DNA from: an uncultured delta proteobacterium
Lineage (GTDB): Bacteria; Desulfobacterota; Desulfobacteria; Desulfobacterales; SG8-13
Assembly (NCBI GenBank): GCA_963848135.1
Contig: CAWKCK010000003.1
Coordinates: forward strand, 992,001 to 1,056,000
Length of the DNA stretch: 64,000 nt
Reading direction: 5' to 3'
Position numbers: made by a program. Numbering within the stretch: position 1 is the first letter of the stretch; every line of letters starts with the position of its first letter. Of this stretch, positions 9,001-15,000 are shown piece by piece.

Positions 9001-12000
9001 GCCACGATTTTGACCGTTTCACCCAAACTTTCGATGGCATTGACGACGCTGCGGACGTTTCCGGCGCCGTAATCAAGGAGCGTTATCATATATTATCTCC
9101 TGACGGATTGTAATATTTCCCGAATATGTCATGATTGAAACGTCGACCGAATATTTCATGAGCATTTTGAGCAGAGCAGAAAAGAGCAGAAAATTAAGCG
9201 CGTTTTGATATGAAATTCCCTTACATCGCAGCGTGCGCTTTGGTCCTATATTTGATTTAAGAATATGGGGAATTGATCGTAATTTATTCAGGGTAGCCAC
9301 AATTAACATCCGGGCAGCTAAAGATCAATAGCCAAGGCGCGCGGGGCCGGTGCTACGGGATTTATGCTATGAGAAAAACATACCTAAAGTGAGCGTTTCA
9401 AATTTTAAATAGAGGGGGAACGGCTTTATTTATTATGAATTGGGCACGAGTTAATATTTCTCGAGGGACGATAACATCCTCTCATCTGGAGATTCATAGT
9501 GGCAGTTGATGCTTTCACGAGGCAGTGTGTGAGCGACACCCTTGACGGGCTGAGGGACGGATTATCACACTTTTCCGGTCCGAGCCGCACGGCCGTAATT
9601 TTTGCCATCGCACCCGAAGATTCTTTTTACATTTGCGATCCTCAAAATCTGCTTCGGGGACACGAGCCCAAGTTAACAGAACTATTTATAGACGAAACAA
9701 ACTGGGGCATCGGCGAATCCATTGGCCATGACAAAAGCAAATTCAGTGACATGCTGCCTGAAAAAAACCTTGACCTGACCGGGCTCATTTCCTGGGGGGG
9801 CCGGTCAAGCTCAGTCTATCACCAGACGTGGTTTACCGAGCACCATCCGGAAATGTGTGCTATCGGCCCTACCGAGCGCTGGCTGGAACACGCGGCTTGG
9901 CGGTTTTCGCATGACATCGCCAATGAAAAGGCCCTTTATACCGGGATTTCAGGCAGTTTTTTGCGCGAGTATGCACGCCATGCCGTTCGGGACTATATCG
10001 TCGATAGGATGAATGTCGAATTGGGTTGGGACAGTCAGCTGCGGGTGTACATGATTCTGGATGCGGTTCTGGGGATCTCTCGAACGCGTGAGGAGCGCGT
10101 TATGCCGGATGGGAAGCTTATCTTTGCGGAGCGGCGACACCTGGATTCGATTGATTTTCTCGCGCGTTTTCCGGAATTGGAACAACCGCTGCTCGATAAT
10201 TTTAAACATGTTCGTAAACTTCTTCAGGCGGCGGAAGATTCAGATCGAATGCTCGTTTCCGATGGCGGAAACATTGTGGGGATTTGCGGTCACACTCAAA
10301 TGCCTCGTTTTTTTCTGACGGCTGATTTTAAGGGTAGTCACGGCTATCTCAACGTCAACGATGCCGGTATCTGCAGTTTTTCCGACGGCAACTTTTTGTC
10401 TACCACGCGACGGGCCAAGCTGGTTCAGTTGGAAGAGGCATTACTCGAATCCGATCTTGACCCGGCTGACAGCAGCCACCTCTTTAAAACAGTCGCCACC
10501 CTCGTTCATCATGCGGAGAAATCCAAGATCGGCTGCACGCTGGTGATAGATCTCAACCTACCGCAATTGACCATTTCGGGGCAAAGGCTGGCTCAACCGA
10601 TAGACCTTCAACAGCCCCATCCGCTTGACCTCGCCAAAGCCCTTTCAAAAGTGGACGGGGCTCTTCACATCGGCCGGGATTTGTGTTTGCATGGATTCGC
10701 CTGCCTGTTGGACGGGCGAGCCATTCCAGGCGAAGACCGTGCCCGGGGGGCACGGTTCAATTCAGCATTGCGATTCACGGCCGAGCGGGAAAATATCGTC
10801 GTGGTGGTCGTATCCTCCGACCGGCCGGTATCCATAATTCAGGAAGGCATTGAAGTTAGCGCCCAGTGCCAATGGAAGCCACTGTCCAGTAGCCTGATGA
10901 GACCGATGACCCTTGCAGAGTGGATCGACTCGGAAGGCAAGCATATCGCCGTTTAGCCCCATTTGTGCTTTTTATTCAGGGCGTGGTCGCAATTACACAG
11001 TTTCGGGGCGGTTGGAATCCTCGCCGTTTTGACGAAAGGTTCAAAATGTGCCTGCGGTTGATCGCCGGTGGGGCATATTGCTGGTGTATCAGCGGACGCT
11101 ATAACACGAGCGCAGTTACGGCACTTCCATAGGACTTTCTGTGAACATTTGAAGACTGCAGGAAATTGATTTTCTTAAGTCAAGGTGTATATCAAGGGTG
11201 CAACACGGCATCGCCGGTGACGGGGTATGGCAAGATTGCTCATAGGGAACCATTGGCGCTACGGTCAGATAAAGTACGGAGCACTATCTACCGGGTTCGG
11301 CGATCCCTTGCAGCCAGCGGATCGCCTCCATGGTTTGTGCGCGGTCAAAATAGGCCGTCTCGATACCGCCAAATAGGCCGAAAAGGCCGATATACGTTCG
11401 TTCCCAACCTTTGTTACCGACGATACACATGCGTTCAATGCGATCGGCGTGAATGCGGACGAAGTGGAGATTTTCAAATAGGGTTTCCGGGCTCCTCGCC
11501 GGCAACTGCGTGTCAATGGACAACAGGAGGCGAACCCTGCCACCGGCAGCGTCGATGGTTTCTTGCAGCATGCGGCTCAGAGCCCGTGTTTGGCGGTCGA
11601 TCATGCGGTCGAACAGTTTGACCGTCACGATATCTCCGATTTTTTGAATCGGATTCCTGTTCATAGGGAGATCTCACTGTTACAGTGTTTTTTCAAACCA
11701 GTTCGGCATCGGTAAGCGCCTGGTTGGCTCCCGGTTTATCGACGATCTGAATGGTACTGGCCTGGGGACCCTCATCACCGTCCTCAGCCACAACATAGCG
11801 GACGCCTGTGCCGATGTCCAGCCGGCTGAATTCATCATGTAACACGCTATTACGATGAAAATAAAGCTCTCTGCCTTCTAATGTTTCTACAAAGCCATAA
11901 CCTTTATCCTTAAAAAGCTTCGTGACGTAGGCCACACTTTGCTGCTGAGGGTGGGTTTTAATGACGCCTTTCTGCTGTTCCAATAGTTTCACTAATCGGC

Positions 12001-15000
12001 GGCGTGCCGTCTCGAACGCTTCCCGGATGACGGCTGTCAAGGGTTCAGGTGGTGAGCCGTCGGGAGATTCGCGTTTAACGACCAGCTCTCGCCCCGGGGG
12101 TATTCGCATGGCAATTCTCACACGGTAGGAATTTCCCGAGCGCTTGTTATCGTGTGGTCTTTCGACCGCCACCCGGCAACTGATCAAATTGTCGCCGAGC
12201 TTGTCAAGTATAGCGGCTTTTTCTTTAATTAGATTGTCGATTTCATCTGATTTTAAGGCATCTCGGAACGTGATTTCCAGCGGTACTCGCATCGTTTTCA
12301 CCTTTCTTTGAGTTTTTGGCGATAATCATCTGTGGTGCCGATGTTCATGATCGGAGTTTTCCTCAAGGTGATGCGGTGTTGGTTGGGGGTGGGGATGATT
12401 GTGCGTACGGACGCCATGGCTAAAGTTGTTTGCATGAACGATGGGTTCACAACCGACGCCAAACCAGTTATCTAGTGCACTTAGTTCTCCAGAGCCGATG
12501 CGCTCTGGAGAACGGGCACCAAGATTGGTCATTAGACACCTCCGTTTTTTGTTTGGTTCTTGCCGGCGGGTACTTTTCTACCGCACAGGCGCTGCTGATA
12601 TCTGAATGATACCCTAAGCAAGTTGTTCCTGCTTAGAATTTAATTCGTCGGCGCGTTAAATCAACATGTGAATTCGTTTGGTGCGAGATAATCCCCGCTG
12701 GCGATCATCACCGGATCTACGTGCACGAGAATACGTAAAAGGGAGCGACCCATTTTTGCTGTCAACTTGTTCACCGTCTTCGGTAGTATGCCATGTTGCG
12801 TGCCAAGATGGCTCCAGCAGTGCTTTTCTGAGCAATGGTCAAATGTTGAGAAGGAGGCGACCGGCATTGCGGGCGCCGACAATGTTTCTGGCGCAGGGCC
12901 CCAGCTGAAGTTCAGCCAGAGGGCCAGTAACGAAGATGTTATCGGACCACCTGAGATCCTTTCCGACGATCGGATAGCCGCACGTTCCGCATTTTAAACC
13001 GAAATCCCTGATAACCTGATCGATGAAGGGTCCCCCCGGGCGTTCAGGATGGAAGCCAGTTGCCAAGACAACGGCATCGGCCCGTCCAATGCCCGTATCT
13101 GTTGTCAAGCGGATACGCTGCCCATTTGTTGAAGTGTCTCGGATACAATCCTGCTGAAATTCCAGCCGGCCCGCGGCAACAGCACGACGAAATTCCTCCA
13201 GGACCTCACTGGGAGCACTGCCGCGGATACGAGCACGGTCGACTGAATTGCGGCGCTTAGCGAAATCGTTGAGCTGAAATTCCTTGAGGCACTTCGGTCC
13301 GATCCAGCAGGGATTGAAATCATACTGACTTGTCCGAAGAGGGTGCCTGGAGATCAGTCGCACTTTACCTGGCAGAATCGCAGACAGTTTTAAGGCGCTC
13401 TGTATGGCCGATATGCCGCCACCGACAACGGCCGTCACCGAGGACGTCGATGTTTTTGCGGGCCTGAAATCGAAATCGAATAGATGATTTATCCGTGCGC
13501 CGGATGTTTTCAGATTACGTGCCCATGCCGGCCAATAGGGTTGTTCTCCCAATCCGATGGCCAGTATTATGTTGCGGGCCTTCACCTGGCCTGCCGTGGT
13601 TGCGGCCGTAATCGACCGCCCGTTTCTTTCGAGGGCCAAAGCCCGACCGACAATCCGGAGAACCCCCAACCGGTTGTGCCGTATGACGTGGTCACAGTGT
13701 GTGTTGAACAGGGGCAGGGAAGGGCGATTATAGGGCGGAATAAAGGCGCCGATCGCTTCTTCCATCGAAGATTTGGCATATCGATACAGCGATAGAATCG
13801 GGAGATCGATGTTATGGGTCGCTGGCGAGCGGAGGTAATTCATTCCGCAATTGGCAGTGAACGTCTTCCAGGCCGCCAGAGGCTCTCTGTGGGGATCGAG
13901 AACCCTGACATCGTCACGGTCGACATCTAACTGGCTGACCAGCAGGTGCGACAGATACGTCCCGTGGATACCGCCGCCAATTATCAACCACTCTAGCATT
14001 TGTTTTACTCACAAGATGATCTCATGTGGTCCAGGCTAATCGAGTTTTTCGAAAAACTCTTTTTCTGCACCACATTTGGGGCAGACCCAATTGTCAGGAA
14101 GGTCTTCAAAAGCCGTTCCGATTTGAATGTTGCTCTCAGCATCACCTTCATCCGGGTCATAGATATAGCCACAGGGGCATTCCCATTTGTCCATCAGTAC
14201 CACTCCTTTCCAGTCGGTTCATTTTATTCGCATAAGACCTGCACCATGGGACAGAAACGATCCCTGTCGTAATATCTATCGCTAATCACAGGCACTGGCC
14301 GCGTCAAGGGAAAATATTTTGTTTCAGCGCCGGCGATGGATTTAGAACGGCTGGGAGATACGGCTTGCCGGCATCGATCAGCACCTCACCTGGGTGAAGG
14401 TCCATGGCCGATGGCGGTTCTTGGATGATTTGCAGGAACGCTCCCGGCAACCTTCCCGAACGGCCACGGGGAAATTGTCATTACGCAGATCAACTCGAGA
14501 GATTCATGAATTGTTTGTGGACAATGTACCTTTGCGGCCCCGATGATCGAAATGACACGGGTGTTTCAGCACTGACCTCTGGTCAGGCACAACTTGAGGT
14601 ACTTTTTCTCGGCGGCGCGAAAGTCTTTTTCGGAGTAATGGTTGAGGTTTTCTTTGGTGCGGAATTTTTTCCTATACTGGCGGATTAAGCGTTTTTTGCC
14701 GCTGGAATTGCTGTGATTGGCCATCTTGGTGTCACCCCCCTTTATTGATTTTCGTTCGTTTGCAGGGACGCTGTGACGATCGGAAAGAACGGGTGCCGAT
14801 CAAAACCGGGTCGGTCTCAGCAGTCGGGTGAGGAGTCTTTGCGAGAATTGGTGTTCAAACCAACGGACTGTTTTCCTGATTGAGTTCTTCAGCCTGTTCA
14901 TGGTCGCCCCCCTTTCAGGGTCATTTATATGATTGAAGCATTATTTGTGCCACAGTGTATTTAAATTTTATTCCAATATTTTTAAATGGTTGTTTGCGTC

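Follow-up and report, generated by a model that had tools for sequence, protein, structure and literature searches.

The stretch of DNA analysed here (64,000 nucleotides from an uncultured delta proteobacterium of the Desulfobacterota, referred to as the window) carries on its minus strand, at 11693..12292, a gene of the HPFcold type. The open reading frame begins with ATG and encodes 199 aa followed by a stop codon, and Pfam recognised in it a ribosomal S30AE domain and a cold-shock domain (CSD). The N-terminal HPF/RaiA (S30AE) domain (approximately aa 1-108; 11969..12292, minus strand) was delimited from Pfam, the AlphaFold model, Foldseek and invariant residues. It is followed by a linker (approximately aa 109-118; 11939..11968, minus strand) with a conserved V-K-x-H-P motif, which was recognised from low pLDDT, column conservation and alignment with the Coxiella linker. 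The C-terminal cold-shock (OB) domain (approximately aa 119-186; 11735..11938, minus strand) was assigned from Pfam and matches to the Csp fold and carries RNP1-like KGYGFV and RNP2-like LYFH motifs. A Shine-Dalgarno-like AAGGTG (12299..12304, minus strand), read from the sequence, is placed 6 nt 5' of the ATG. The alignment of three loci (the window, L006 and L007) revealed that the last 18 columns 5' of the ATG are invariant. An alternative GTG start at 12301, three codons further 5', would give a protein of 202 aa; as this GTG sits within the invariant AAGGTG block and the homologues begin M-x-V-P-L-E, the ATG is the likely start.

The Pfam search placed Ribosomal_S30AE at aa 6-107 (E 3.8e-6, 28.0 bits, model 2-87 of 88; gathering cut-off 23.7 bits) and CSD at aa 123-182 (E 2.1e-9, 37.5 bits; gathering cut-off 27 bits). 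The dimerisation domain PF16321 (S30AE_C) gave no Pfam match in the protein at E<=1. The initial annotation had described an S30AE and CSD fusion, and the reading frame lies at exactly the coordinates it gave with both domains over their gathering cut-offs, which confirms the fusion gene as real. The homologue search yielded 2465 proteins at E<=0.001 from 2710 candidates, and every one of the best 120 of these possesses both Pfam domains in a length of 184-214 aa. An assembly or frameshift artefact as the source of the fusion was ruled out, all 120 listed homologues being two-domain proteins. A recent duplication of hpf within the genome with fusion to csp was also ruled out, as BLASTP against the long and short S30AE proteins of the same genome was near noise (E 0.002 over 29 residues and E 26).

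The S30AE score, only about 4 bits above its cut-off, had been raised as a possible refutation of the domain; the predicted fold backs the assignment. The AlphaFold2 model (mean pLDDT 78, pTM 0.52) showed a beta-alpha-beta-beta-beta-alpha topology for the N-domain, with strands at 6-10, 38-44, 57-64 and 68-75 and helices at 16-32 and 85-109. The pLDDT of the linker (aa 109-117) was below 50, and at this pTM the arrangement of the two domains in the model is not informative. In the Foldseek search the N-domain matched HPF/RaiA/pY chains bound to the ribosome, with a target-normalised TM of 0.78-0.90 and an rmsd of 1.6-2.8 Å over about 100-113 columns. The C-domain matched Csp structures with a TM, again normalised to the target, of about 0.8-0.87. 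The library entries run to 8 April 2026; PDB 9T0Z was absent from the matches, and the comparison with this structure was made by sequence.

The protein (P0001) aligned over aa 1-182 with aa 6-179 of 9T0Z chain 9 (E 5.6e-31, 111 bits), while the next-best matches, with E values of 5e-7 or weaker, were to stand-alone Csps and covered the CSD part only. This chain is the "HPFcold" of Coxiella burnetii, determined by cryo-EM (CBU_0020; PDB 9T0Z/9TZE; Stuart et al., Nat Commun, June 2026, PMC13392368). In that structure the decoding cleft is blocked by the N-domain and the CSD lies in the mRNA exit channel, where it holds the 16S anti-Shine-Dalgarno 3' end (PMC13392368). The reported contacts are Y142-U1534, F132-C1535, R123-C1535 (a pseudo-pair) and a bridge from R177 to G924-925/C1530 (PMC13392368 supplement). 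These residues were placed by hand through the 9T0Z alignment, in which the chain numbering gives all four residue identities correctly, and correspond to Y144, F134, K125 and T180 of the present protein. The two proteins agree in domain order, V-K-T-H-P linker, full-length alignment and the stacking Phe and Tyr, and are similar in length (199 vs 183 aa); at the C1535 pseudo-pair position Arg is conservatively replaced by Lys. They differ in the R177 bridge to rRNA, which is replaced by Thr here, with a D-K-P-G motif after the barrel. The hosts differ as well, as the present organism keeps a long HPF and eight stand-alone Csps, whereas Coxiella is reported to lack long HPF, RaiA, RMF and dedicated Csps (PMC13392368).

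The conservation of individual positions was counted in 45 aligned relatives. The RNA-stacking aromatic positions are strongly retained, F134 being Phe in 45/45 and Y144 being Tyr in 42/45 and Phe in the other three. Position 125 is basic in 40/45 (Arg in 22, Lys in 18) and carries other residues in five. Position 180 is Thr in 43/45 and Ser in 2/45 and is basic in none; with the R177 bridge lost, this clade must have an anchoring that is in part different. Residues R57, R59, P65, P66 and F93 of the S30AE domain are invariant (45/45), as are F145 and H146 of the CSD. The linker is conserved at K112 (45/45), H114 (43/45) and P115 (40/45). After the cold-shock barrel the D-K-P-G motif is invariant in the clade, and a C-terminal P-x-G-W tail was seen in 16 of them.

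The genome was also searched for other hibernation and cold-shock factors. The initial annotation had stated that the genome also encodes a canonical long HPF, and this was borne out by a protein of 177 aa with S30AE and Ribosom_S30AE_C domains (TIGR00741 75.7 bits against a cut-off of 40.9; PF16321 82.1 bits) encoded directly after rpoN. An additional short S30AE paralogue of 111 aa, which that annotation did not mention, and eight stand-alone CSD genes are present. The organism's own 16S rRNA ends in GGATCACCTCCTTTCT, a normal ACCUCC anti-Shine-Dalgarno end, and a bS21 gene was found (55.7 bits). RMF was not found in the genome (completeness 98.65%). The search of the genome for baeRF_family7 (Balon-like) gave no match; its control matched nowhere either, so this result says little.

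The gene product was also compared with the known classes of such proteins. RaiA/pY and short HPF have, like the N-domain, a single S30AE domain blocking the A/P sites, and they were its top Foldseek matches, but they possess no CSD. The C-terminal tail of RaiA goes into the mRNA channel, and short HPF acts together with RMF. The CspA-family proteins share the OB fold with RNP1/RNP2 aromatics, but stand alone, with a length of about 70 aa as against 199 aa here. The long HPF has an N-domain of the same fold which, by homology, has the same site in the cleft of the 30S subunit, whereas the present protein is without the PF16321 dimerisation domain and the two sequences are barely alignable. Long HPF is established as the maker of 100S dimers (cited in Stuart et al., PMC13392368).

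The gene lies in a small local unit on the minus strand. A His-rich mini-ORF of 68 aa (12326..12532) ends 33 nt 5' of the HPFcold start, and a SpoIIAA-like gene (STAS-type, PF11964, Pfam E 5.6e-14) of 126 aa (11284..11664) follows 28 nt 3' of its stop. The mini-ORF and its own GGAGGTG ribosome site are conserved in L006 and L007, and it was found upstream of HPFcold in 2/79 other loci. It matched no family in Pfam, NCBIfam or PADLOC; a zinc knuckle of the CxxCxGxG type, present in its relatives, is lost in the copy of the window. The SpoIIAA-like gene stands beside HPFcold only in L006 and L007 (2/80 loci). The three-gene unit was seen only in this Desulfobacterota lineage. The scan listed no minus-strand terminator-like site in the 28-nt gap. 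Upstream of the mini-ORF, preceding all three genes, is a non-coding block (12633..12666, minus strand) that hardly varies between the window, L006 and L007 and may be a promoter or operator. It contains TTGATT-16 nt-TAAATT, which by eye agrees with the sigma-70 consensus at 8/12 positions and is below the threshold of the promoter scan, where it was not listed. Three sigma-70-like sites came out of the scan; shuffled sequences gave 1.6 +/- 1.6, and such sites are therefore not enriched. The Rfam search of 10500-14500, for example for a cspA-type thermosensor in the long upstream region, gave nothing at E<=1.

Contigs from RNA libraries were found for this region. Metatranscriptome contigs of two studies contain pieces of the HPFcold gene at 95-99% and 90-95% similarity, a weak hint. 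One contig of 153 nt from X20, with 15 differences, runs from the HPFcold stop across to the start of the SpoIIAA-like gene, which does not by itself prove a single transcript. Such contigs may be DNA-derived and come from relatives of this strain, and the parts they leave uncovered are uninformative.

The neighbourhood was further compared across 80 loci. The SpoIIAA-like, FAD oxidoreductase, rubredoxin, DAC cyclase, PK_C and HisHF neighbours of the window recur only in L006 and/or L007, and no family-wide conserved operon partner was found. The neighbour count covered 132 flanking ORFs at 68 loci, 12/80 loci being left out where the crude ORF caller had not called the HPFcold ORF; the same caller chose wrong-strand ORFs at some loci, L006 and L007 included. 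The commonest neighbour elsewhere was a phosphoribosyltransferase (16/68 loci, mostly cyanobacteria). Neighbours related to stress or dormancy were baeRF (Balon-like) at three loci, PRC-barrel at four, DUF2267 at three, and Usp, YflT and DJ-1 at one each.

The gene is an ordinary member of the known HPFcold family, whose architecture, ribosome-binding mode and wide, patchy distribution are in print. The HPF-Csp chimera, in which a truncated HPF is joined to a Csp domain, was described across genomes by Chan et al. in a November 2025 preprint (bioRxiv 10.1101/2025.11.04.686544), and the present gene is one more instance with no difference in kind. The name HPFcold, the structure and a tree that includes Thermodesulfobacteriota come from Stuart et al. 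(Nat Commun, June 2026, PMC13392368). The literature searches for earlier descriptions turned up only that article with its preprint, and Chan et al. was reached through its reference list; the proposal of an undescribed HPF architecture does not hold. Relatives already bear names such as HPF/RaiA family or CspA/RaiA protein at NCBI and JGI. The rarity suggested from 2/30 Desulfobacterota genomes has the right order of magnitude for the phylum, where a two-domain match was obtained in 21 of 200 other sampled genomes (8 of the 21 with a stop counted inside the matched stretch). It does not extend to the family overall, which is large and not rare, 583 of 600 matched stretches from species genomes being confirmed. 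Chan et al. state that HPF chimeras coexist with canonical HPF and that their locus is variable, sometimes beside Balon-like genes (bioRxiv 10.1101/2025.11.04.686544); the coexistence found here with a long HPF and a short S30AE paralogue is as they report.

The gene very probably encodes a ribosome hibernation factor of the HPFcold class, which would silence 70S ribosomes with its CSD on the anti-Shine-Dalgarno. By homology with Coxiella, the N-terminal HPF/RaiA domain would bind in the tRNA/mRNA cleft of the 30S subunit, blocking the A site. The short V-K-x-H-P linker would connect it to the cold-shock domain at the mRNA exit side, where the RNP aromatics F134 and Y144 would stack on bases of the single-stranded 16S 3' end (ACCUCC) and bS21 and uS7 would keep the domain in position. 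The predicted outcome is a 70S monomer kept silent without ribosome dimerisation, its exposed 16S 3' end protected against RNases, and the factor would act next to the long HPF of the same genome. The architecture and fold, the homology over the full length, the conserved stacking residues and, as ribosomal partners, the ACCUCC end and bS21 were observed here, and from them we infer ribosome binding and a physiological role in this organism. The initial annotation had proposed a second hibernation factor in which a CSD replaces the dimerising C-domain and ties 30S binding to single-stranded rRNA. Such a mode of binding is seen in the homologue structure 9T0Z and PF16321 is missing here; the mechanism proposed is essentially right, while the interpretation of the initial annotation as a whole is partly supported.

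The protein could instead be mainly a Csp-type RNA chaperone or mRNA-binding regulator, active in antitermination or mRNA stability, with the N-domain as an accessory and transcripts rather than idle ribosomes as its target. The retained RNP1-like and RNP2-like motifs, the weak NCBIfam matches to CspE, CspA and CspD and the missing equivalent of the R177 ribosome anchor would fit this. All Csp equivalog scores, the best being CspE at 29.9 bits against a cut-off of 120, are however far too low, the genome already contains eight stand-alone CSD genes, the N-domain has an HPF fold and the protein has full-length homology to a factor observed bound to the ribosome, which makes this reading improbable. 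Slightly less probable again is a modulator of translation in growing cells, which would use the same anti-SD binding not for long-term storage but, for instance, for start-site or SD-dependent control of initiation during cold, oxygen or metal stress. Anti-SD binding would indeed compete directly with SD-led initiation, the mini-ORF and STAS-like gene of the local unit could be regulators, and rubredoxin and redox genes are close by. The homologue, on the other hand, fills the A site and the path of the mRNA, which cannot be reconciled with a ribosome engaged in translation (PMC13392368).

A CSD effector of defence (retron Se72-like, or another CSD-bearing defence protein) was considered from the matches to NCBIfam retron_eff_Se72 (26.7 bits) and PADLOC CSD_V (27.6 bits). 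Both are weak and span the generic CSD only, and the retron model NF038236 has a cut-off of 82 bits. The three neighbouring ORFs scanned gave no PADLOC match and no Rfam family, retron ncRNA included, was found in 10500-14500 of the window. The failed cut-offs effectively refute this reading, whose probability is next to nil.

The three-gene unit of this lineage might form an undescribed switch of the hibernation factor, responding to metal status or to a protein of the partner-switching type, and the R177 loss, the invariant D-K-P-G motif and the P-x-G-W tail could mean a different contact with the 30S platform; this is regarded as unlikely. If true, it would matter where the cell must choose between 70S storage by HPFcold and 100S storage by the long HPF.

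Since HPFcold coexists here with the long HPF, the short S30AE paralogue and many stand-alone Csps, it supplements the canonical hibernation factors and does not stand in for lost ones. Until now the class had been characterised only in a pathogen that lives inside cells; the gene extends it to a free-living, sediment-type member of the Desulfobacterota. This organism or a cultivable relative would be a reasonable system for asking when capping of the anti-SD on 70S ribosomes and when 100S dimerisation is used.

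The open reading frame at 11693-12292 on the minus strand of the window comprises 199 codons plus a stop and opens with ATG. The Pfam search essentially reproduced the two-domain figures of the initial annotation, giving Ribosomal_S30AE at aa 6-107 (E 3.8e-6, 28.0 bits against a cut-off of 23.7, model positions 2-87 of 88) and a cold-shock domain (CSD) at aa 123-182 (E 2.1e-9, 37.5 bits against a cut-off of 27). No S30AE_C dimerisation domain was detected in the protein by Pfam, and NCBIfam returned sub-threshold Csp matches only, the top one being CspE with 29.9 bits against a cut-off of 120. 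The feature is real. The ATG is likely to be the true start, because the relatives begin with M-x-V-P-L-E-I-T and the alternative GTG at 12301 falls inside a Shine-Dalgarno-like AAGGTG block, which the loci of two close relatives, L006 and L007, share unchanged.

The structure of the protein was predicted with AlphaFold2 using an alignment of 45 relatives as input (mean pLDDT 78, pTM 0.52). The modelled N-domain has the topology beta-alpha-beta-beta-beta-alpha, with strands at aa 6-10, 38-44, 57-64 and 68-75 and helices at aa 16-32 and 85-109; it is followed by a low-confidence linker (aa 109-117) and a small beta-barrel. Foldseek matched the N-domain model to ribosome-bound HPF, RaiA and pY chains in the PDB with TM scores, normalised to the target, of 0.78-0.90 (for example 5mmj_y, 8rd8_D, 5zep_x, 8fmw_W and 4hei_A), and the C-domain model to Csp structures with a TM to target of about 0.8-0.87. 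The weakly scoring S30AE call is real, backed by the predicted fold.

The sequence search against all PDB chains revealed a single outstanding match, 9T0Z chain 9 (E 5.6e-31, 111 bits), a 183-aa chain annotated as "Ribosome hibernation promoting factor", with query aa 1-182 aligned to chain aa 6-179. The remaining matches were stand-alone Csps covering the CSD portion only, at E 5e-7 or weaker. The 9T0Z entry shows "HPFcold" (CBU_0020) on the 30S subunit of Coxiella burnetii and is described by Stuart et al. (Nat Commun 2026;17:7049, PMC13392368). According to that paper, the PF02482 domain occupies the tRNA cleft of the 30S subunit and the CSD is kept in position by bS21 and uS7; PF02482-PF00313 fusions are placed in every proteobacterial class and in Cyanobacteria, Nitrospirota, Thermodesulfobacteriota and further groups. 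Chan et al. (bioRxiv 10.1101/2025.11.04.686544), reference 30 of Stuart et al., independently report chimeras of HPF with Csp, SigE or CBS domains, which co-occur with canonical HPF, occupy variable loci and often adjoin Balon genes. The window protein belongs to the HPFcold family as a new, uncharacterised member. The mechanism proposed in the initial annotation is backed by the published structure of a full-length homologue; its claim of an undescribed architecture is not supported, HPF-CSD fusions being already in print.

The rRNA contacts were analysed for the four Coxiella residues named in the supplement of PMC13392368, where Y142 and F132 stack on U1534 and C1535, respectively, R123 makes a pseudo-pair with C1535, and R177 bridges two rRNA backbone segments. 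They were placed on the window protein by hand via the 9T0Z alignment, the chain index giving four of four residue identities, and correspond to Y144, F134, K125 and T180. In the 45-sequence alignment of relatives, F134 is Phe in 45/45, while at Y144 42 sequences have Tyr and 3 have Phe. Position 125 holds Arg in 22 sequences, Lys in 18 and some other residue in 5; position 180 holds Thr in 43 and Ser in 2. By these counts the stacking platform is kept in the clade of the window protein and the R177 bridge is not. Unlike Coxiella HPFcold, this clade lacks an R177 equivalent and instead carries D-K-P-G behind the barrel with almost no variation; its K186, present in 43/45, is a candidate substitute for the R177 bridge. 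A conserved C-terminal tail, approximately E-P-P-x-G-W, follows D-K-P-G in 16 of the 45 relatives (P0030, P0038, P0041 and others); the P-x-G-W tail is absent from the window protein and from the shortest members.

The genome (6.03 Mb, 18 contigs, 98.65% complete) was searched for ribosomal partners and other hibernation factors. The 3' end of the 16S gene is GGATCACCTCCTTTCT, and bS21 is present (55.7 bits). Three S30AE genes were found: the HPFcold gene, a long HPF and a third, S30AE-only paralogue. The long HPF (177 aa) lies directly downstream of rpoN and scored 73.8 bits for S30AE, 82.1 bits for S30AE_C and 75.7 bits for TIGR00741 against a cut-off of 40.9. The third paralogue, of 111 aa, adjoins a divergent LysR-like ORF on contig C5 (334484-334762; 1480-1815 in the extracted stretch L002), and scored over the cut-off in Pfam (39.5 bits) and below it for TIGR00741 (34.6 bits). 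RMF was not found in this 98.65% complete genome, where the 111-aa paralogue may be a RaiA/short-HPF-like factor. The baeRF_family7 search of the genome gave no match and was uninformative, as its control had none either. Besides the HPFcold gene there are eight stand-alone CSD genes, whereas Coxiella has lost its dedicated Csps according to PMC13392368. In BLASTP the protein matched the genome's own HPFs near noise; the HPFcold N-domain is therefore of an old, divergent lineage and did not arise by a recent local fusion.

In the window the HPFcold gene is flanked on the minus strand by two small genes. A His-rich mini-ORF of 68 aa (12326-12532), which has a GGAGGTG ribosome site of its own, lies 33 nt upstream, and a SpoIIAA-like gene of 126 aa (11284-11664; PF11964, E 5.6e-14) lies 28 nt downstream; within the 28 nt that separate the HPFcold stop from the SpoIIAA-like start, the scan listed no terminator-like site on the minus strand. 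L006 and L007, whose HPFcold proteins share 88% and 84% identity with that of the window, also carry the mini-ORF (67-69 aa across the three) with the GGAGGTG site, ending 36 nt before HPFcold. Both contain C-P-E-C-T-G-S-G-K and a second C-x-G-K-G, which we take to resemble a DnaJ-type zinc knuckle; in the window these cysteines are replaced and the His-rich C-terminus (…HEHRHHR) is retained. No Pfam, NCBIfam or PADLOC family was found for the mini-ORF. The SpoIIAA-like gene is beside HPFcold in 2 of 80 related loci and the mini-ORF in 2 of 79, and both flanking genes are lineage-specific; the three-gene unit that they form with HPFcold may be a regulatory arrangement. Upstream of the mini-ORF, a non-coding block of about 34 nt (12633-12666, minus strand) is nearly invariant in the window, L006 and L007, and is retained in L007 although the upstream gene there differs. 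By our own reading it contains TTGATT-16 nt-TAAATT (8/12 sigma-70 matches), which is absent from the promoter-scan listing; it has an unproven resemblance to a weak sigma-70 promoter and may serve the mini-ORF/HPFcold/SpoIIAA-like unit as a promoter or operator. A further gene (9499-10956, plus strand), which converges on the SpoIIAA-like gene and is also conserved in L006 and L007, encodes a DACND-DACNH-DAC protein of 485 aa, a di-adenylate cyclase in which two sensor domains are predicted.

Three metatranscriptomic runs had contigs on the HPFcold gene, X18 and X19 from one sample and X20 from another study. The X18 and X19 contigs lie at 11944-12091 and 12102-12252 (3-4 differences each), and an X20 contig lies at 12025-12275 (9 differences). 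Another contig of X20, at 11573-11725 with 15 differences, takes in both the stop of HPFcold and the start of the SpoIIAA-like gene; RNA libraries can contain DNA, and one contig is no proof of a single transcript. These contigs of related strains give a weak hint of expression.

The immediate neighbours of HPFcold elsewhere were varied, as seen from 132 flanking ORFs at 68 loci, 12 of 80 loci having been dropped where the crude ORF caller missed the HPFcold ORF; the caller also took some wrong-strand ORFs. The only recurrent partner seen was a phosphoribosyltransferase-domain gene of about 220 aa in 16 of the 68 loci (L015, L017, L025, L029, L030, L033, L037, L038, L043, L044, L048, L051, L052, L060, L062 and L063), mostly Nostocales with one Calditrichaceae and one Ignavibacteriaceae. 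It directly adjoins HPFcold and shares its strand, lying upstream of it in 15 of these loci and downstream only in L060. The other neighbours were PRC-barrel (4 loci), DUF2267 and Balon-like baeRF (3 each), Isochorismatase (2), and Usp, YflT, DJ-1/PfpI and Dodecin (1 each). The neighbourhoods show a stress and dormancy flavour at a variable locus, in accordance with the HPF chimeras of Chan et al.

The word-indexed protein search yielded 2465 homologues at E<=0.001 among 2710 candidates. All 120 homologues listed carry both Pfam domains, measure 184-214 aa and are 52-98% identical to the query, with source names including "HPF/RaiA family ribosome-associated protein". In the species-genome collection at least 583 stretches were confirmed of the 600 pattern-matched ones listed. 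The 80 loci kept from these belong, by record title, to Desulfobacterota and other delta-proteobacterial bins, Nostocales and other cyanobacteria, Candidatus Sulfobium, Calditrichaceae, Ignavibacteria, Cytophagia and other Bacteroidota, Planctomycetes, Chloroflexi, Lentisphaerae, Victivallales, Spirochaetales, Omnitrophota, Hydrogenedentota, Latescibacterota, Auribacterota and Myxococcales. Among 201 genomes sampled evenly from the window's phylum, 59 had matches at E<=1e-10, mostly CSD-only. Two-domain matches, running from profile position <=20 to >=180, were present in 21 of the 200 other genomes, 12 of them with E<=1e-47 and 8 with a stop counted inside the matched stretch; the rarity noted initially (2 of 30 Desulfobacterota genomes) is therefore about right locally. 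Within the same phylum, genome G110 has an open frame of 611 aa that includes an N-domain of the HPFcold type (C1:2396180-2396509, profile positions 1-116), and G058 and G096 gave N-domain-only matches; these may be HPF-type domains with other C-terminal partners. The HPFcold family is large and patchy, as published.
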